Positions 2,800 to 9,173 are shown, counted from the stretch's first letter. The stretch is 39,777 nt of DNA from Candidatus Parcubacteria bacterium (GCA_009995365.1 JAACPR010000006.1:1-39777); one strand, 5' to 3'. A program made the numbers and translations. Notes: generated from the letters alone by a model not told the origin.

Positions 2800-4149
2800 T
2801 TATTTCATATAAAGTTCATAAATATTTATTATTTCTTCAAAATCATTTCTACGATCTGAATTTACATACTCAGATATTTCGTTTAAATCAAGCGTCTTTT
2901 CTTCTGTTTCAATATTTATTTGTTTATATTTTTTTCGATTTGGATAGTAAAATTTTATTTCACCCTTTTTATAAGGAAAGTTTGTTACTTCACCAGTCAA
3001 AACCAAAGTCTTTTCAGAGTCCAAAATAGTGTCTTCGGCAATTTTAAAAACAATCTTTTCATCAGTATCTACCTCAAAAGGTTCAAAGACAAGCGTAAAC
3101 CTACCAATATTGATTTCTTGTTTTAAAGTGTTTTTCAACAGAACATCCACAGTTTTTCCACTTTTTGAATAATCCAAGTTTATTTCGGGATTCGAGACGA
3201 AGACCTTGGTTCTGGCAGTTGAATCGCTTTGACCTTTTACAGCTTTTAGAACGACATTATAGACACCGGCTGAATTGTAGGAATAACTGATTTCATCCCC
3301 TCTCAATTGCTTGCCATCACCCATAGACCATAGCGCCTTTATACCACTTCCTTTTGATTGGTTGTGCTCAAGATGGAAATCAATTTCGGAATTAACCAAA
3401 GCGTAGCGATTGCGACCAGCAGAAACCTTTAGGTCGACTTTTGGTTTGTAGTTTGAGAGGTCGCTTATTCCGGAATGAGTCGATTTTGTGCCAGATGAAG
3501 TTCCAGAACCAGCGGAAGAACCACCACCCGAATCAGCGCCAGAGCCATCATCAGAATCACCTTGGTCACTTTGGTCGTCTGCCGAGGTTGCATTCTCTAG
3601 GAAGGGTGTTGGCTGGGCGGGGATCCAATCAGATGCGGAACTGGTAGTAAGTCCGCCATCACTAGAACTAGAGAGGTTGGTATTTTGCAGTGAACTACCT
3701 GTTCCGTCAGCTCCCCACTCTGGATCATATGTGACCGTGTAGATAATCTCTCCGTCAGGATTCACAATTGAAAGCTCTTCGCCTGTGTTTTTGAGTGAGA
3801 AAACCGAGTCTATCAATAATTCGTTCTCAGAGTAATCCTCCAAAAATTTGGTGGAATTGTCAGCAATAATGGCATATTTTTGTGGCTCTAATAATAACCC
3901 AGTGTCGTCTGGATTATGTGGCGACAATCTGTGGGCGACATCGTTTTCTAAAAATCTATAATTTATTAGGTCGATCGATTCGTCGCCTGTATTATAGACC
4001 TCGATCCATTCCCTACCAGAGTCAGCACCCTCGGGGTTATACATTATTTCGGTGATTATAATTTCGGCATGAAGTGTAAGGGGAAATATACAGAAAAGGT
4101 AGAAAAATACGGATAAAAATATTAATTTGGTATTTGAAATTATTGGCAT
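2800..4149 (-). CDS. secreted lamin-tail-domain (LTD) + PKD domain protein
   Basis: Signal peptide, 'IIITEIMYNPEGADSGREWIEVYN' LTD start, 'PTP' LTD end, Gly/Ser linker, 'WSMGDG...YSYNSAGVYNVVL' PKD motif. Confidence 0.85.
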   Translation of the reverse strand: MPIISNTKLIFLSVFFYLFCIFPLTLHAEIIITEIMYNPEGADSGREWIEVYNTGDESIDLINYRFLENDVAHRLSPHNPDDTGLLLEPQKYAIIADNSTKFLEDYSENELLIDSVFSLKNTGEELSIVNPDGEIIYTVTYDPEWGADGTGSSLQNTNLSSSSDGGLTTSSASDWIPAQPTPFLENATSADDQSDQGDSDDGSGADSGGGSSAGSGTSSGTKSTHSGISDLSNYKPKVDLKVSAGRNRYALVNSEIDFHLEHNQSKGSGIKALWSMGDGKQLRGDEISYSYNSAGVYNVVLKAVKGQSDSTARTKVFVSNPEINLDYSKSGKTVDVLLKNTLKQEINIGRFTLVFEPFEVDTDEKIVFKIAEDTILDSEKTLVLTGEVTNFPYKKGEIKFYYPNRKKYKQINIETEEKTLDLNEISEYVNSDRRNDFEEIINIYELYMK

Positions 4150-4169
4150 GAATCAAAGGTAGCACATGA

Positions 4170-4246
4170 ACACTAAAATAGTTTTAAAGAAAAGTTAAAA
4201 TCCGTCTAAAGACAAGTTTTGACAAGAGAGGTAGGTTTGTTAGTAT
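4170..4246. repeat. array repeat copy A (degenerate left half, intact + strand promoter)
   Basis: CACTAAAATAGTTTTAAAGAAAAGTTAAAATCCGTCTAAAGACAAGTTTTGACA...TGTTAGTAT aligns with copies B-E; TTGACA 4219-4224, TAGTAT 4241-4246. Confidence 0.85.
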
Positions 4247-4252
4247 GTAATC

Positions 4253-4305
4253 ATAAATGGCAATTGAGCCGACCGAGGAACCACCTAGAAATAGGTGGTT
4301 CCGTT
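4253..4305 (+). ncRNA. putative small RNA convergent on PemK/MazF gene 4306..4698
   Basis: Follows the promoter; GGC-AATTGA-GCC then GGAACCACCTA-GAAA-TAGGTGGTTCC (4277-4302) and a short U run. Transcription is inferred. Confidence 0.55.
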
Positions 4306-4698
4306 TTATTTAATCAAATCTATTACCCTCTCTTTAATTTGGTTAAAATCATTAAAATATAACTTACTAATAAATCTCCTCAATCTCTTAACACTCATTA
4401 ACTTAATTTGAGACAAAATAACAAAATTTTCAAGTCCGTTAATTTTTATCTTGTGATAGAATTTTTCGTCACCACTTTTGGAACTTATAGGTAGTGTTAA
4501 ACAAATTCTATTATTAAAATTCTTTAAAATTAAAACGGGTCTTTCATACCTATTTTTCTTGCCGTTTTCCTCATCACCTATATTTAACCCAACGGATGCC
4601 CACCAAACCTGTCTTTCTTTTATTTCCAAAAAATTGATTTTATTATCAATCTTTTTCTTCATCTTATTCCACTCATCAAAGTCTTTGCGCACCACCAT
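4306..4698 (-). CDS. PemK/MazF-family endoribonuclease (orphan toxin)
   Basis: 'QVWWASVGLNIGDEENGK...RPVLIL...LPISS...ILSQIKLMSVKRL' MazF motifs. True start may be the GTG at 4692. Confidence 0.9.
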   Translation of the reverse strand: MVVRKDFDEWNKMKKKIDNKINFLEIKERQVWWASVGLNIGDEENGKKNRYERPVLILKNFNNRICLTLPISSKSGDEKFYHKIKINGLENFVILSQIKLMSVKRLRRFISKLYFNDFNQIKERVIDLIK

Positions 4699-4788
4699 AC
4701 CCTATCAAACACACCTAAAATCCTGATAAAGAAAGGTTGAAATCCGTCTCAAGACAAGTTTTGACAAGAAAAATGAATTTGATAATAT
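4650..4788. repeat. array repeat copy B (first toxin codons, toxin promoter, divergent sRNA promoter)
   Basis: ...CTTATTCCACTCATCAAAGTCTTTGCGCACCACCA-ACCCTA-CAAA-CACCTAAAATCCTGATAAAGAAAG...TTTTGACA-16-TAATAT (4761-4788). Confidence 0.9.
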
Positions 4789-4794
4789 AGAAGA

Positions 4795-4835
4795 TACAAG
4801 TGCCGTAGGCCCGCCTTCGAAAGAAGGCTAAAAGA
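4795..4835 (+). ncRNA. putative small RNA convergent on PemK/MazF gene 4850..5242
   Basis: TACAAG, GCC-GTA-GGC, then GCCTTC-GAAA-GAAGGC (4813-4828). 3' end uncertain. Confidence 0.55.
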
Positions 4836-4849
4836 AATACAAAAAGCGA

Positions 4850-5242
4850 TTAAAACAAATCTTTAATCGCTTTTTTAATTTCTTGAAATAAATCCTCGGC
4901 TAATACACAAATTAGTTGAGATAATCTTTTAGTATCTACGACCTTCATTTGAGATATAATTGCTTTTGCCTGTTTACCGCCAATTAGCCCAACATCAAAT
5001 CTATATTTATGCTCTTGTTGTGAAGTGGTGAGTGGTATTGCAAAGAAAGTCATTAGACTCAACCCTTTAATAACTATAACGGGTCTTTTAAAATTAATAT
5101 AATCACCATGTTGCTCGTTACCTATATTCAGCCCTATATTACACCACCATACTTCCCCTTCATGATAAAAACGACCTTTTGATTTTCTATCAATCTTTTT
5201 CTTCATCTTATTCCACTCATCAAAATTTTTGCGCACCACCAA
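4850..5242 (-). CDS. PemK/MazF-family endoribonuclease (orphan toxin)
   Basis: 'GEVWWCNIGLNIGNEQHG...KRPVIVI...IPLTT...IISQMKVVDTKRL'. True start may be the GTG at 5236. Confidence 0.9.
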   Translation of the reverse strand: MVVRKNFDEWNKMKKKIDRKSKGRFYHEGEVWWCNIGLNIGNEQHGDYINFKRPVIVIKGLSLMTFFAIPLTTSQQEHKYRFDVGLIGGKQAKAIISQMKVVDTKRLSQLICVLAEDLFQEIKKAIKDLF

Positions 5243-5310
5243 ACCCTACCAAAACCACCTAAAATCCTGATAAAGAAAAGTTTTGACAAGAGAGGCAGGT
5301 TTGTTATCAT
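5190..5310. repeat. array repeat copy C (internal deletion of about 22 bp)
   Basis: Same repeat but lacking the AAATCCGTCTCAAGAC segment; TTGACA 5283-5288, 16 bp, TATCAT 5305-5310. Confidence 0.9.
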
Positions 5311-5316
5311 TATGAA

Positions 5317-5358
5317 TACAAACGGCTTCGGCAAGACCTTGCGAAAGCAAGGGTAACA
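5317..5358 (+). ncRNA. putative small RNA convergent on PemK/MazF gene 5371..5769
   Basis: TACAAA, GC-TTCG-GC, then CCTTGC-GAAA-GCAAGG (5337-5352). 3' end uncertain. Confidence 0.55.
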
Positions 5359-5370
5359 AATAGAAAAAAT

Positions 5371-5769
5371 TCAAGGGAGTAATTCCTTGAATTTTTTATT
5401 TAAATCTTCAAAATCTAACGATTCAATATAATCAATTTTATTTAATAACCTCTTTGAATCCAGTAACCGAATCTGAGAAAGTATCGCTGTGCTTTTTTGA
5501 TCATCAAATACCGATTGGAAGGTGTGATAAAATGGCAATGTTTTTATTGTTCTCGTTAGGGGAATAGCCCAAAATATGGATTTATTAAACTTTTTAAAAA
5601 TCAAAACTGGTCTTATAAAATTAGCCCCGACACCATCTTGTTCACTAGAGATATTCAACCCTAAATTACAATTCCAAATTTCTCTCTCATAAAAAATTGG
5701 TTTATTTTCAGATAAATTTATCTGCTTATTCATCTTATTCCACTCATCAAAGTCTTTGCGCACCACCAA
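5371..5769 (-). CDS. PemK/MazF-family endoribonuclease (orphan toxin)
   Basis: 'REIWNCNLGLNISSEQDG...RPVLIF...IPLT...ILSQIRLLDSKRL'. True start may be the GTG at 5763. Confidence 0.9.
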   Translation of the reverse strand: MVVRKDFDEWNKMNKQINLSENKPIFYEREIWNCNLGLNISSEQDGVGANFIRPVLIFKKFNKSIFWAIPLTRTIKTLPFYHTFQSVFDDQKSTAILSQIRLLDSKRLLNKIDYIESLDFEDLNKKFKELLP

Positions 5770-5859
5770 ACCCTAACAAACTCACCTAAAATCATTATAA
5801 AGAAAGATTAAAATCGAACTAAAAACCAATTTTGACATTAAAAATGAATTTGATACTAT
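5729..5859. repeat. array repeat copy D
   Basis: Same repeat; TTGACA 5832-5837, 16 bp, TACTAT 5854-5859. Confidence 0.9.
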
Positions 5860-5865
5860 AAAAAC

Positions 5866-5916
5866 ATCACGACGAAAAGGTTTTGTAGGGGTTCCGTCCC
5901 TTACAAAGCCTTTTTA
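5866..5916 (+). ncRNA. putative small RNA convergent on the NYN gene
   Basis: One long hairpin AAAAGGTTTTGTAGGGG-TTCCGT-CCCTTACAAAGCCTTTT (5875-5914) with two G-U pairs valid only on +, followed by a U tract. Confidence 0.55.
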
Positions 5917-5918
5917 TT

Positions 5919-6416
5919 TTATTTAAGCTCTAACTTGTTTCTTTTTCTATTTAAAAATTCAAAAATGTTTTTATCAGGGCGACTAAGCCTCTTCAGCAAA
6001 GCTGAATATTTCTTTTCATCTGGCACCAAAACAATCTCTAATTTATTTTCATTTAGCAAATATTCAACTAAACAATAAAAATCGCCATCACCAGAGACAA
6101 CGATTGCTTTATCAAAATTCTTATACTGTATCATTGTGTGCAAAATTAATTCTGCGTCAACATTTCCTTTTATTTTTCCACCTTTCAATTCAAGAGTTGG
6201 TTTAAAGATACAAATGTAGCCCATGTTTTGAAGTTTTGTATATAATGTTTCATTTCCAGGTATATAACCTATAAATATATAGGCTTTTGTAGTAGAATAT
6301 TTTTCTTTTAAATATTTATAAAATTTTTTAAAGTCCAATTCCCAACCGAGATCTCTAATCCCAAGATTTAAATTCTGACTGTCTATAAAAGCAAAGTTAT
6401 TAACTAATTTTTTCAT
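5919..6416 (-). CDS. NYN-domain (LabA/DUF88, PIN-like) ribonuclease
   Basis: 'AFIDSQNL', 'KGNVDAEL', 'VVSGDGDF' acidic catalytic motifs, 'YSALLK'. Confidence 0.92.
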   Translation of the reverse strand: MKKLVNNFAFIDSQNLNLGIRDLGWELDFKKFYKYLKEKYSTTKAYIFIGYIPGNETLYTKLQNMGYICIFKPTLELKGGKIKGNVDAELILHTMIQYKNFDKAIVVSGDGDFYCLVEYLLNENKLEIVLVPDEKKYSALLKRLSRPDKNIFEFLNRKRNKLELK

Positions 6417-6440
6417 CGATTAACATATTAATAAAATTTA

Positions 6441-6529
6441 TCCTACCAAAACCACCTAAAATCCTGATAAAAAAAGATTAAAATCCGGCTCAAGACGAAT
6501 TTTGACAAAAAAGCTGAGTTTGATATTAT
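6441..6529. repeat. array repeat copy E
   Basis: CCTACCAAAACCACCTAAAATCCTGATAAA...AAATCCGGCTCAAGAC...TTGACA 6502-6507, 16 bp, TATTAT 6524-6529. Confidence 0.9.
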
Positions 6530-6535
6530 GGAGGG

Positions 6536-6575
6536 TACAAATGCCTTCGGGCCCGCCCTCGAAAGAGGGAAAACA
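6536..6575 (+). ncRNA. putative small RNA convergent on PemK/MazF gene 6581..6973
   Basis: TACAAA, GCC-TTCG-GGC (6543-6552), CCCTC-GAAA-GAGGG (6556-6569). 3' end uncertain. Confidence 0.55.
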
Positions 6576-6580
6576 AAAAG

Positions 6581-6973
6581 CTACCAGAACATGTTTCTGA
6601 TAGTTTTTTTGATTAAATTAAAAGTTTCTTTATCTAGAATAGCTTCTCTTTTATAAAATCTTTTTGTGTCTATTAATTTAATTTGAGATATTATTACTTT
6701 CGCATTTTTACCTCCTATTTTACCTATTGATATATAATATTTATTATTCTTATTAGAAGTAGTTAAAGGAGCAACTATAGAAATATCTTTATTGAACCTC
6801 TTGATAACTAATACTGGTCTATCAAATTCCTTACCTGTTCCATCTTGTTCAAAACCAATATTAATCCCCAACTTACACCACCAAATTTCTCTTGCTTTAT
6901 AATACCGCCTATTGTTATAAGCATTAACATTCTTCTTAACCTTATTCCACTCATCAAAGTCTTTAAGCACCAC
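6581..6973 (-). CDS. PemK/MazF-family endoribonuclease (orphan toxin)
   Basis: 'REIWWCKLGINIGFEQDG...RPVLVI...APLTT...IISQIKLIDTKRF'. True start may be the GTG at 6970. Confidence 0.9.
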   Translation of the reverse strand: MVLKDFDEWNKVKKNVNAYNNRRYYKAREIWWCKLGINIGFEQDGTGKEFDRPVLVIKRFNKDISIVAPLTTSNKNNKYYISIGKIGGKNAKVIISQIKLIDTKRFYKREAILDKETFNLIKKTIRNMFW

Positions 6974-7010
6974 CAGACCCTAACAAAACCCCCTAAAATC
7001 CTGATAAATA
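6941..7010. repeat. array repeat copy F (toxin-side half only)
   Basis: CTTATTCCACTCATCAAAGTCTTT..GCACCACCA.ACCCTAACAAAACCCCCTAAAATCCTGATAAA; no TTGACA half follows. Confidence 0.85.
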
Positions 7011-7080
7011 AAATCTAAACCGAACAAAATATAAAACACAAAAACCCCGCCGTTTTACGAGCGGGATTTTTGAGGTAAAC

Positions 7081-7108
7081 AAAAAACCACTCTTGCGAGT
7101 GGTTTTTT
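7081..7108 (-). terminator. intrinsic terminator of the surface-protein gene
   Basis: AAAAAACCACTC-TTGC-GAGTGGTTTTTT perfect hairpin (GCAA loop on minus); a second imperfect hairpin at about 7040-7072. Confidence 0.85.
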
Positions 7109-7190
7109 GCTGAACTTTTAAGTTGTTCTAAACTTTTCGATTTTTGCTATCGAGAAACTCTCAATTACTTTCAGAAATTTTTAACTAAAA

Positions 7191-9173
7191 CTAGTTAAGA
7201 ATTTGTTCTGAAGGTGATTGGTAATCTGATGTAGGAACTGCATCTTGTGAGTCATCTCCAGCAGCTTTTGTATCATTGAAGTTAACTTGTCCAAGTTGTC
7301 CTCTAAAGTTTCCTGTAGAAGCAGCATCGTGGTAAAGAGTTAATTTCAAATCAACTTCTTGTCCTGGGTTTAATCTCACGTAGTTTCCATCGATTGTACC
7401 ACCACTAACTCTTTCTAGAGTTGCTGTAGTTGTACCTGTTGAAACAACAACATCGTTATTGTTCACATCTTCAATGTAACCGTATGCACCTGCAGCGCTA
7501 ACTGCTGTATTTGTAGTTGTAGCTGTAAGAGCAATGTAAGCTGTTTCATCGAATGCTTTAACTGTGAAGTTAATTTCGAACTTACCTTGGTCATCAGTAC
7601 TTGTTGTATCTAGGTTAAAGATTCTAGCTGAAGAATCATTATCCCCTTCTGACAACATGATTCCTGTTGCAGCGAAACTAATGTCATCAGCTTGTGCTGA
7701 ACCTTTTAGATCTGTAACAGTATCACCGTTTTCATCATCAGCATCAATGTCAGCTGAATCGATAAATACAACTGAGAATGAATCACCATTTGTGAATCCT
7801 CCATCAATATCATTGATGTCAGCTTTCAATACAAATGAAACTCTATCTCCTTCTTCGATAACTACATCATCATCATCAAGATCGATGAATGTAAGTGTTC
7901 TTGTTGGGACTGAGCTTGAAGCGAAACTTCCACCATCAATTGTTACTCTACCAACTTCTTTTCCTTCCATAAATAATTCGAAGTCGTTAGCAATTTCAGT
8001 AACACCAGCACCTACTGATGTAATATCGATTTCCAATGAATCAAGTTCTAGATCAGAACCTTCAGCTTCTAATTCGAAGCTTAGGATTTCAACACCATTT
8101 GTGTCGCTTGTTTCTGAAATTTCAATTGTTCTTGCATTGTTAATTGATGAATCATCTTCACGAACTGTTAGTTCAACATCTCCTGAAGTTGAAAGATCTT
8201 CAAAAGTAAATGTTTCTGTGATTGTTCCATTTACTCCTGTACCTGTTGCGTCAGTTAGGATTGCTCCTGTTGCATCTTCATATCTGATTTGACCAATAGC
8301 AACTTCCCAATTTTCATCAAGATCGTTACTATCAATATTTCTGATTGCTGAAACAGCAACATAGAATCTTTCTTCTTCATCTTCATCAATAATAGCATTT
8401 GAAACTGCAATGTTTCTTGAATACACATCATTGTTTTCTGAGAAATCATCTACGTCAACTGTACCAACAACTGTGTTTCCCATCATGATTTGTACTTCAT
8501 CAACATAACGATCTAGTCTGTCTGAACCTGAACCATCGTGTTCAAATTCAACACGTACTGAAGTAACTGCGATGTCTGATCCTGTAGCTTCAATTTCGAA
8601 ACCAAGAACTTTAACCTCGTTTGCTCCTTCTAGAACTTCATCTTCAACACCTGATGATCTTTCTGTTACATCAATACTTCCAGCTCCACCTTGTAGACCA
8701 GTACTTGGTGTAGTTGGTGTAGTTGGTGTAGTTGGTGTAGAAACTAGACCTGCGAATGCTGATCTAGTGATTGGACCAAAGTATCCTGATGCTGGTGAGA
8801 TTCCTTCAGCTGCTTGCATTGAAGCTAGAGCTGATTGTGTAAGAGAACCGAAGTACCCTTTTGAAACACCTGCTGGGATATTTAAGTATCCTAGGTCAAT
8901 AAGAACATCTTGTAGGGCTACTACATCTGCTCCTGTTGATCCGATTGTTAAGTCTCTAGTGAAGTTGTATCCTGCTGCAGTTGAACCTGAAGTAGAACCA
9001 GTTGTTCCTAGAGCTGCGCGAGCTGCATCTGCTTTTTCTGAAGAAATGATATCTAGAGAAATAAGCAATTCAACTAACTCGCTTGCTGTCAAAGCAGAAG
9101 CTGGAACTGCTACACCTACGAAAAGTGCAATAGCTACAACAACACCTGCTGTTTTTGCGATTAAATTTTGCAT
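7191..9173 (-). CDS. secreted peptidoglycan-binding-domain surface (S-layer-like) protein
   Basis: Signal peptide ending PASA; 'FTRDLTIGSTGADVVALQ...GYFGSLTQSAL...GYFGPITR' PG_binding_1 motif; PT linker; acidic beta-rich remainder; strongly biased codon usage. Confidence 0.85.
   Translation of the reverse strand: MQNLIAKTAGVVVAIALFVGVAVPASALTASELVELLISLDIISSEKADAARAALGTTGSTSGSTAAGYNFTRDLTIGSTGADVVALQDVLIDLGYLNIPAGVSKGYFGSLTQSALASMQAAEGISPASGYFGPITRSAFAGLVSTPTTPTTPTTPSTGLQGGAGSIDVTERSSGVEDEVLEGANEVKVLGFEIEATGSDIAVTSVRVEFEHDGSGSDRLDRYVDEVQIMMGNTVVGTVDVDDFSENNDVYSRNIAVSNAIIDEDEEERFYVAVSAIRNIDSNDLDENWEVAIGQIRYEDATGAILTDATGTGVNGTITETFTFEDLSTSGDVELTVREDDSSINNARTIEISETSDTNGVEILSFELEAEGSDLELDSLEIDITSVGAGVTEIANDFELFMEGKEVGRVTIDGGSFASSSVPTRTLTFIDLDDDDVVIEEGDRVSFVLKADINDIDGGFTNGDSFSVVFIDSADIDADDENGDTVTDLKGSAQADDISFAATGIMLSEGDNDSSARIFNLDTTSTDDQGKFEINFTVKAFDETAYIALTATTTNTAVSAAGAYGYIEDVNNNDVVVSTGTTTATLERVSGGTIDGNYVRLNPGQEVDLKLTLYHDAASTGNFRGQLGQVNFNDTKAAGDDSQDAVPTSDYQSPSEQILN
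8705..8740. repeat. 9-bp tandem repeat x4 encoding the Thr-Pro-Thr linker
   Basis: (TTGGTGTAG)4 exact. Confidence 0.95.

Follow-up and report, generated by a model that had tools for sequence, protein, structure and literature searches.

What restrains the products of four PemK/MazF toxin genes that lie close together with no room between them for a protein antitoxin? The question is raised by a stretch of 39,777 nucleotides (nt) from a Candidatus Parcubacteria bacterium (GCA_009995365.1, JAACPR010000006.1:1-39777), the whole of which is referred to here as the window. Few bacterial toxins are as well studied as MazF, which is known as the partner of a protein, MazE. On the minus strand of the window, positions 4150-7100 carry five short genes consecutively, four for PemK/MazF proteins (toxins A, B, C and E) and one for an NYN-domain nuclease (gene D). 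The gaps between the genes, of ~150 nt, are taken up by a near-consensus promoter on the plus strand, followed in each case by a structured stretch that runs toward the 3'-end of the next gene. The small RNA predicted from such a gap is probably the antidote of the MazF toxin that it faces, replacing the usual protein.

Toxin genes and the RNAs that face them

The toxin genes, facing RNAs and RNA promoters are as follows, where E is the expectation value and R1 and R2 are covariance models of the two RNA types, described in the next section.

4219..4246, plus strand: promoter of RNA A (TTGACA, 16 nt, TG-n-TAGTAT; 10 of 12 matches plus the TG extension)
4253..4311, plus strand: RNA A, type 1, from its fold; R1 score 70.9 bits, itself an R1 seed sequence
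4306..4698, minus strand: toxin A, PemK/MazF, 130 aa (Pfam PF02452, E 1.2e-9), in the type 1-linked clade
4761..4788, plus strand: promoter of RNA B, from the promoter scan
4795..4881, plus strand: RNA B, type 2, from its fold and the terminator scan; R2 score 37.7 bits (E 6e-8), not a seed sequence
4850..5242, minus strand: toxin B, PemK/MazF, 130 aa (Pfam E 3.8e-13), with the MazF fold in its AlphaFold2 model
5283..5310, plus strand: promoter of RNA C (11 of 12 matches plus TG)
5317..5403, plus strand: RNA C, a variant, from its fold; below detection by R1 and R2 at E ≤ 0.01
5371..5769, minus strand: toxin C, PemK/MazF, 132 aa (Pfam E 7.6e-9)
6502..6529, plus strand: promoter of RNA E (11 of 12 matches plus TG)
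6536..6611, plus strand: RNA E, type 2, from its fold; R2 score 65.1 bits, itself an R2 seed sequence
6581..6973, minus strand: toxin E, PemK/MazF, 130 aa (Pfam E 3.6e-14)

The four toxin open reading frames (ORFs) score 36-53 bits against PF02452, for which the gathering cut-off is 23.1, and are the only MazF homologues in the 758-kb, 24-contig genome. Five promoters with the pattern TTGACA, 16 nt, TGnTAnnAT, one of them facing gene D, are the top five matches of the promoter scan and all lie on the plus strand. They place the predicted RNA starts at approximately 4253, 4795, 5317, 5866 and 6536, 6-7 nt past the promoter. Fold z-scores on the plus strand range from -3.8 to -6.5, and equal folding was seen in none of 200 shuffles.

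RNA A begins with AUAAAU and continues with a first hairpin (4259-4270, GGC-AAUUGA-GCC), the linker GACCGAG and a second hairpin (4277-4302) with an 11-bp stem and a GAAA loop. Because the U tract GUUUUAUUU lies directly 3' of it, this GAAA stem is a terminator. In RNA B, the 5' UACAAGU is followed by GCC-GUA-GGC (4802-4810) and GCCUUC-GAAA-GAAGGC (4813-4828), then an A-rich linker with UACAAAAA and a bidirectional terminator (4841-4875), inside which lie the last ~10 codons of toxin B. RNA E has the same arrangement: UACAAAU, GCC-UUCG-GGC (6543-6552), CCCUC-GAAA-GAGGG (6556-6569), the linker AAAACAAAAA and a terminator core at 6581-6603. RNA C shares this layout with a degenerate first hairpin, and comprises UACAAAC, a 2-bp hairpin GC-UUCG-GC (5325-5332), CCUUGC-GAAA-GCAAGG (5337-5352), AACAAAU in the linker and a terminator at 5364-5397.

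The third hairpin of B, C and E starts 5-12 nt past the GAAA stem and forms a bidirectional intrinsic terminator (A tract, stem, U tract) that covers the toxin stop codon and last codons. Overlap between RNA and toxin ORF is 27-35 nt in these three copies, a feature also of most type 2 relatives, and only ~6 nt in A. Predicted transcript length is ~59 nt for A and 76-87 nt for the other three. A U tract thus directly follows a G+C-rich stem at the GAAA hairpin of A and at the third hairpin in B, C and E, but not at the GAAA hairpins of the latter three or at any first hairpin. No conserved start codon or ORF that would indicate a small peptide was found in the RNAs of the window or of its relatives.

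A preliminary description of this segment, made from the sequence alone, had reported four GAAA-capped stems, a small hairpin before each, and TACAA or ATAAAT at the 5'-end, and the sequence and folds agree with it on all of these. It had assigned a single fold to the four copies; each does fold as described, although A is of type 1, B and E are of type 2 and C is a variant. Its statement that B, C and E are not standard terminators is correct for the GAAA stem, after which there is no U tract, but not for the whole RNA, since the third hairpin is a standard terminator.

Relatives, covariation and strand

Relatives were collected with the four toxins from species genomes (256 confirmed stretches, best 80 kept) and metagenomes (at least 468 stretches, best 80 kept), giving 160 loci plus the window. 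In these 161 sources tblastn located 175 toxin copies, window counted, of which 173 have 110 nt or more of sequence beyond the toxin 3'-end. Going by their record titles, the genomes come from many lineages of Patescibacteria, from metagenome-assembled Rickettsiales and other Alphaproteobacteria, and from Campylobacterota; the toxin family is present in 51 of the 401 genomes sampled from the phylum. Nearly everywhere among the relatives, the same design lies opposite the toxin gene just past its stop codon, namely a promoter, 6-7 nt, and an RNA.

The RNAs are of two types. Type 1, as copy A, consists of (U)ACAAAU, a 3-4-bp G/C hairpin, YCCGAG, and a long stem ending in CG plus a U tract that is the terminator. 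Type 2, as copies B and E, consists of (U)ACAA(G/A)U, G(G/C)C-UUCG-G(C/G)C, UCG, CCCYC-GNRA-GRGGG, an A-rich stretch, and a separate terminator that contains the toxin stop codon. Covariance models were built from small gapless seed alignments, because MAFFT RNA alignments misplaced the linkers; R1 is based on 5 type 1 seeds and R2 on 11 type 2 seeds. A match to R1 or R2 (E ≤ 0.01) was found on the opposite strand at the 3'-end of 145 of the 173 toxin copies (R2, 84; R1, 58; both, 3). Full-length matches are always on the strand opposite to the adjacent toxin, and matches on the same strand cover the hairpin only.

A covariance-model search, which the preliminary description had proposed for Patescibacteria genomes, recovered the family at most toxin copies of the related loci. 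The R1 genome scan was mixed with terminators. In 151 genomes of the phylum, R1 gave 15 matches other than its own, about 4 of which are true members and 11 of which are ordinary terminators scoring 25-33 bits (9 full-length, 2 partial). Two of the 15 lie directly beside a toxin that could be detected, L202 at a distance of 5 nt and L197 next to a truncated copy. At L209 the leader and hairpin are present and the nearest toxin match is 955 nt off, and L203 is a possible fourth member. Since 11 of 15 non-own matches are plain terminators, R1 E-values near 1e-4 are too generous, and a model-free motif control was therefore added. This rule (a -10-like hexamer, 5-8 nt, A[CT]A[AGT][AGT], and a small G/C hairpin) was applied to the 200 nt downstream of the toxin on the antisense strand, where 117 of 146 distinct toxin copies carry the motif. 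In the controls it was found at 10/146 (downstream sense), 12/146 (upstream antisense) and 6/146 (upstream sense). The link to MazF-family genes made in the preliminary description is upheld by Pfam, by the two models and by the motif rule.

Eight model matches have no detected toxin alongside. Among the sites with other neighbours, the RNA at L019 (3923-3989) precedes an NYN-like ORF of the same strand, that at L043 (3833-3885, the same site as L209) is convergent with a 116-aa hydrophobic ORF, that at L203 (1501-1584) is convergent with an 86-aa ORF that is GIY-YIG-like by eye, and that at L142 (2224-2271) has no obvious partner.

Covariation supports both folds. In the 46 distinct type 1 sequences 95.6% of cells are paired, with double changes in 15 of 15 pairs; in the 72 distinct type 2 sequences 93.5% are paired, with double changes in 7 of 9. 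Doubly changed cells number 131 against 28.8 in shuffled data for type 1, and 78 against 26.9 for type 2, the observed value being reached in 0 of 500 shuffles in each case, in alignments that were fitted to the models and so somewhat favour structure. When the 3' partners are slid, pairing falls to 37-58% (type 1) and 32-86% (type 2). The middle pair of the first type 2 hairpin shows a clean switch between G-C (41) and C-G (30).

G-U pairs outnumber A-C mismatches 27:3 in type 1 and 8:1 in type 2, 35 to 4 in total, which assigns the fold to the promoter-bearing strand, opposite the toxin. Because the structure is on that strand, the RNAs are not merely terminators or stabilisers of toxin mRNA. 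A common covarying fold, read on the plus strand, is what the preliminary description had proposed, and both parts stand. Its GAAA loop, present in all four window copies, proves to be a local case of GNRA; GNRA accounts for 42 of 48 (type 2) and 26 of 36 (type 1) four-base loops of the second hairpin, and in the relatives GCAA is commonest. The first hairpin of type 2 has a UUCG loop in 65 of 72 RNAs.

The promoters are equally one-sided. A promoter with at least 10 of 13 matches lies on the RNA side at 126 of 149 loci, compared with 17/149 upstream of the toxin and 12/149 in a control region. Among 135 distinct promoter-RNA pairs, 110 have TTGAC[AT] as the -35 hexamer and 78 have the TG extension. 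In 92 of the 135 the A[CU]A triplet starts at the predicted +1, the 7th base past the -10 hexamer, and a T precedes the A of the triplet in 87 of the 120 that have A[CT]A. The commonest leaders of the 135 pairs are ACAAAU (51) and ACAAGU (20); AUAAAU accounts for 6, and ACAGUU and others form smaller groups. A stem closing the leader onto the U-rich tail was considered and dropped as a general feature; the signal is weak, as mean complement length is 3.2 compared with 2.9 and was equalled or exceeded in 13 of 500 permutations, and C at position 2 occurs with UUUGU in only 3/32.

The 5' module (ACAAAU plus the G/C hairpin) is outside the overlap with the toxin gene, and its sequence is conserved across records of Patescibacteria, Rickettsiales-labelled genomes and Campylobacterota, groups across which the toxins share ~30-50% identity. 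One relative is on a plasmid of a cultured host, Nitratiruptor sp. YY08-14 (NZ_AP023062.1, 24558-25218; L195), with the same RNA layout and near a replication initiation gene. A 62-aa hypothetical ORF is found just downstream and overlaps the RNA promoter region. No homologue was found in phage records. At L008, L014, L062 and L157, and also L066, tRNA genes, a common landing zone for mobile elements, are within 1-2 kb of the toxin-RNA modules.

Toxin proteins, array structure and the NYN gene

The family profile identifies MazF/EndoA of B. subtilis (4MDX, 1NE8, 4ME7; E 1e-7) as the nearest relative of solved structure among PDB sequences, which phmmer with toxin B alone did not match at E ≤ 0.01. 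In the profile alignment to 4MDX and 1NE8, the RP of the catalytic Arg (RPV) falls on RP and a conserved Thr on Thr, and the loop that precedes this Arg is longer by an insertion of 5 residues. The AlphaFold2 model of toxin B, from a 114-sequence alignment, has a mean predicted local distance difference test score (pLDDT) of 84.3 and shows the MazF barrel, a low-confidence loop at 40-47, and an extra N-terminal helix (residues 7-19) that carries the family motif K-D-F-D-E-W-N. The top Foldseek matches in PDB are all MazF, including 4mzm and 4mdx (template modelling scores 0.78 and 0.75). ToxN/AbiQ is absent among the Foldseek PDB matches listed, Pfam gives PemK only, and the PADLOC defence-system models do not match the MazF proteins. 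The toxins are likely to cut single-stranded RNA sequence-specifically.

A protein antitoxin was also sought at the relatives. At about half of the 80 genome loci, no ORF on the toxin strand ends in the 80 nt that precede the toxin. Among the 19 small same-strand upstream ORFs of these loci (the screen did not extend to large upstream ORFs, downstream ORFs or metagenome loci), one, at L058, is MazE-like. At L046 (1903-2442) the gene directly upstream of the toxin encodes a 2H/LigT-type phosphoesterase (PF13563, PF02834). Enzymes of this type act on 2',3'-cyclic phosphate ends, as left by MazF-type cleavage.

A quick IQ-TREE phylogeny of 114 toxins contains two groups, each with a Shimodaira-Hasegawa-like approximate likelihood ratio (SH-aLRT) support of 90. 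The clade of 43 includes 28 toxins with an R1 match, 1 with R2 and 14 without a match, and the clade of 71 includes 64 with R2, 2 with both and 5 without. RNA type thus tracks toxin clade, which shows co-inheritance and not interaction, because physical linkage alone yields the same pattern. The window toxins are not each other's closest relatives. Toxin A belongs to the R1 clade, C is placed next to L063, B with L076, and E at another place in the R2 clade.

The remaining features of the array are a segment that recurs between its cassettes, and gene D with its RNA.

4660..4790, strand not assigned: constant inter-cassette module, from the alignment; ~16 initial toxin codons with their 5' leader, and the promoter of the next RNA
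5832-5859, plus strand: promoter of RNA D, from the promoter scan
5866-5925, plus strand: RNA D, from its fold; 5' AUCACGACGA, then an 18-bp terminator hairpin; a separate, NYN-linked RNA family
5919..6416, minus strand: gene D, NYN-domain (LabA-like) nuclease, 165 aa (Pfam PF01936, E 2.9e-14; PADLOC NYN model, E 1.2e-7)

Further copies of the constant module are at ~5204-5312 and 5731-5861, and partial ones at 6440-6531 and 6937-7010. Codons 1-16 of the four toxins are 88% identical in nucleotide sequence (86-88% with the 5' leaders), compared with 53% for codons 17-132. As these 5' segments are so alike though the toxins belong to different clades, the array looks like a set of distinct modules that were joined or homogenised via a constant ~130-bp segment, suggesting gene conversion or cassette exchange through it.

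Gene D is a cassette within the MazF array, and its homologues are present in 121 of the 401 sampled genomes. At 26 of 29 NYN loci (L166-L194), a -10-like hexamer with AUCA[CU]NA (typically AUCACGAUGA) is found antisense just past the NYN stop codon, whereas each of three control regions gave 0/29. Most of the NYN-linked RNAs have a TTGACA-type promoter upstream, by eye. They form a long hairpin with a covarying outer stem (7 of 8 predicted pairs) and a conserved GGUUUCGUCC apex, and their U tract extends across the stop codon of the NYN gene. Another NYN gene of this genome (contig 7, 11600-13000; L214) likewise has a convergent RNA. Two unrelated ribonuclease (RNase) families therefore each have their own family-specific convergent small RNA, and the parallel suggests a general design, not a one-off. 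The AUCAC at the 5'-end of the NYN-linked RNA (window 5866-5875) also occurs directly ahead of the anti-Shine-Dalgarno sequence at the 16S rRNA 3'-end. If this likeness is real, that site might be the target of the NYN toxin and the RNA its mimic, though five bases could match by chance.

Upstream of toxin E, two strong terminator hairpins are present at 7033-7146. A weak full-length R1 match on the minus strand (7077-7146, 22.8 bits) is most likely the terminator of the 660-aa gene at 7191-9173. At the window edge (1-730), a 23S rRNA gene of the minus strand is truncated and represented by its 5' part.

Role of the RNAs and comparison with known systems

The features above are best accounted for by a toxin-antitoxin pair with an RNA antitoxin, since the RNase is intact without a protein partner, the promoters are asymmetric, the linkage is tight, and the plasmid relative is beside a replication gene, the usual place of addiction modules. 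We put the probability that the RNA is a cognate antitoxin that binds the toxin directly, as in type III systems, at roughly 0.45. MazF of B. subtilis cuts U^ACAU and MazF of E. coli cuts before ACA (PMC7781912). With A[CU]A commonly at the predicted +1, the 5' UACAA of the RNAs is consistent with the substrate mimic that the preliminary description had suggested. Each element would be an independently transcribed RNA of ~55-85 nt with a strong constitutive promoter, tail-to-tail with a gene for a MazF/PemK-fold RNase. Its single-stranded 5' leader, (U)ACAAAU, which resembles a MazF recognition site, would be presented to the RNA-binding groove of the toxin by the two covarying hairpins (UUCG-type and GNRA-type) as a pseudo-substrate or product mimic. 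A near-consensus RNA promoter opposed to a weak toxin promoter would keep the RNA in excess, and loss of the locus or a block in transcription would free a stable RNase. The 3' antisense overlap may be a second layer of control. Direct binding would explain why the 5' module is conserved across phyla outside the overlap, why that module is specific to each toxin family, and why it starts with a MazF-like ACA.

Several observations weigh against an RNA that acts on the toxin protein. The 5' leader is not universal, with UAUUAG, CUAAAU (by eye) and ACAGUU variants among the relatives, and T-A at -1/+1 is an ordinary context for transcription starts too. There are 28 of 173 toxin copies without a model match; most have variant RNAs by eye, but at L033, L048, L070 and L101 no RNA was seen by eye either. 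L058 carries its MazE-like ORF, and the 62-aa ORF of the Nitratiruptor plasmid looks ribbon-helix-helix-like by eye. The agreement between RNA type and toxin clade is expected from linkage alone. Finally, a convergent, overlapping layout in two unrelated toxin families is predicted by antisense control and is not needed by a protein-binding RNA, and in type 1 loci the toxin strand, as read from the sequences, has no U tract past the hairpin, so that toxin mRNA may run on past it and so be complementary to the whole RNA.

These last points bear on the most serious rival, a type I-like antisense RNA that acts on the 3'-end of the toxin mRNA, leading to cleavage and decay of the duplex, or whose convergent transcription interferes with that of the toxin. 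Its pairing part would be the terminator in loci of the B, C and E types, or the whole RNA in those of the A type if toxin mRNA reads through. It has to be taken seriously because of the 27-35-nt overlap with toxin 3'-ends, and it would explain why the tail-to-tail overlapping layout is kept in both RNase families; a strong RNA promoter facing a weakly promoted toxin gene suits it as well. Antisense action alone does not, however, require the conserved and covarying 5' module of type 2, which is outside the overlap, and copy A overlaps its toxin ORF by only ~6 nt. Bidirectional terminators are, moreover, commonly shared by convergent genes with no regulation implied. Pairing in trans with the toxin translation start was rejected, as cognate duplexes (-20.5 kcal/mol) are equivalent to non-cognate ones (-19.4 kcal/mol; p = 0.15, 122 pairs). 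Direct binding is thus favoured and a purely antisense role is less likely, though the two could act together.

More doubtful still is a partner that is not an antitoxin, such as a cofactor, activator, natural substrate or decoy, of a toxin restrained in some other way, for example in cis by its N-terminal helix. The conserved extra helix with its K-D-F-D-E-W-N motif would fit, as would the few model-positive RNAs beside non-MazF genes (L019, L043/L209, L203). An active stand-alone RNase nevertheless needs an inhibitor, and here the catalytic Arg and Thr are aligned and a protein partner was not found; promoter asymmetry is the usual mark of an antitoxin made in excess, and the plasmid site beside a rep gene fits an addiction module. 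Least probable is that the hairpins are structural by-products, i.e. terminators or 3'-end stabilisers with spurious transcripts and with conservation due to the toxin 3'-end. The second hairpin is indeed a terminator in A and the type 1 relatives, and R1 does pick out plain terminators. Yet the first hairpin and 5' leader are conserved and covary outside both coding sequence and terminator, no U tract follows the second hairpin in B, C or E, G-U pairs put the structure opposite the toxin strand, near-consensus promoters lie at a fixed distance from it, and the motif rule separates 117/146 from at most 12/146 in the controls. Covariation and strand data largely refute this view.

A broader proposal can be made only tentatively. 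Single-copy small RNAs, not proteins, may neutralise MazF-fold and NYN RNases in the ultra-small bacteria of the Candidate Phyla Radiation and in some Rickettsiales and Campylobacterota, forming a new class of RNA antitoxin in which a pppACA start would be an uncuttable mimic of the 3' cleavage product, held by a two-hairpin clamp, with arrays built through the ~130-bp recombination segment. Control of this large MazF subfamily by a conserved small RNA, if true, would add a family to the small set of RNA-antitoxin systems, provide a compact natural RNA that inhibits a MazF-fold RNase, and give a clearer view of toxin regulation in genome-reduced bacteria, where coding space is minimal. The Nitratiruptor plasmid offers a relative in a cultured host.

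The RNA family is widespread, and a description of it was not found in Rfam or in the literature searched. At gathering score, Rfam identifies only large subunit rRNA in the window and only tRNAs in 20 related loci, and at E ≤ 10 there is no relevant match in 4100-7150, the pemK motif included. The pemK motif is an element of 5' untranslated regions in Firmicutes. This structured RNA, which takes its name from pemK genes, exists as an Rfam family (10.1101/2024.10.12.618037). The literature searched gave no account of a structured small RNA convergent with a MazF/PemK or NYN toxin, though subscription journals or supplements may hold one.

Comparison with type I systems rests on the overlap. 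In B. subtilis, txpA/RatA and bsrG/SR4 are type I pairs with a 3'-overlapping antisense RNA, and here too a convergent small RNA overlaps the 3'-end of toxin mRNA. Most type I toxins are small hydrophobic peptides, whereas those described here are soluble 130-aa proteins with an RNase fold, and the modules are therefore not typical of type I. In SymE/SymR the RNA antitoxin counters a toxin linked to RNA cleavage and not a membrane peptide, but SymR overlaps the 5'-end. The type I antisense RNAs named here are not known to show cross-phylum conservation of sequence and structure outside the overlap.

With type II MazEF/PemIK, the modules share the toxin family, the fold, and the aligned catalytic Arg and Thr. 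They differ in the extra N-terminal helix and the longer loop before the catalytic Arg, and in having a conserved convergent small RNA at the place expected of an antitoxin. MazE or PemI was not found beside the window toxins and only 1 of the 19 small upstream ORFs is MazE-like; they are not type II because MazE is absent.

Known type III systems (ToxIN, AbiQ/antiQ, CptIN, TenpIN) have an RNA of 2.8-5.5 tandem repeats of 34-36 nt, upstream in the same operon, with a terminator before the toxin gene. Here a single-copy RNA with a promoter of its own is encoded convergently to the toxin, and the toxin is PemK/MazF (PF02452), not ToxN/AbiQ, CptN or TenpN. Tandem Repeats Finder detected no ToxI-like repeats in the window, only three short low-complexity rows. 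As the toxin family differs, tandem repeats are absent and the layout is convergent and not operonic, the modules do not belong to a known type III family. A type III antitoxin RNA carries the recognition sequence of its own toxin (PMC7781912). What the window modules share with type III is a MazF/Kid-like-fold endoribonuclease facing a structured non-coding RNA that would be made in excess and would inhibit it.

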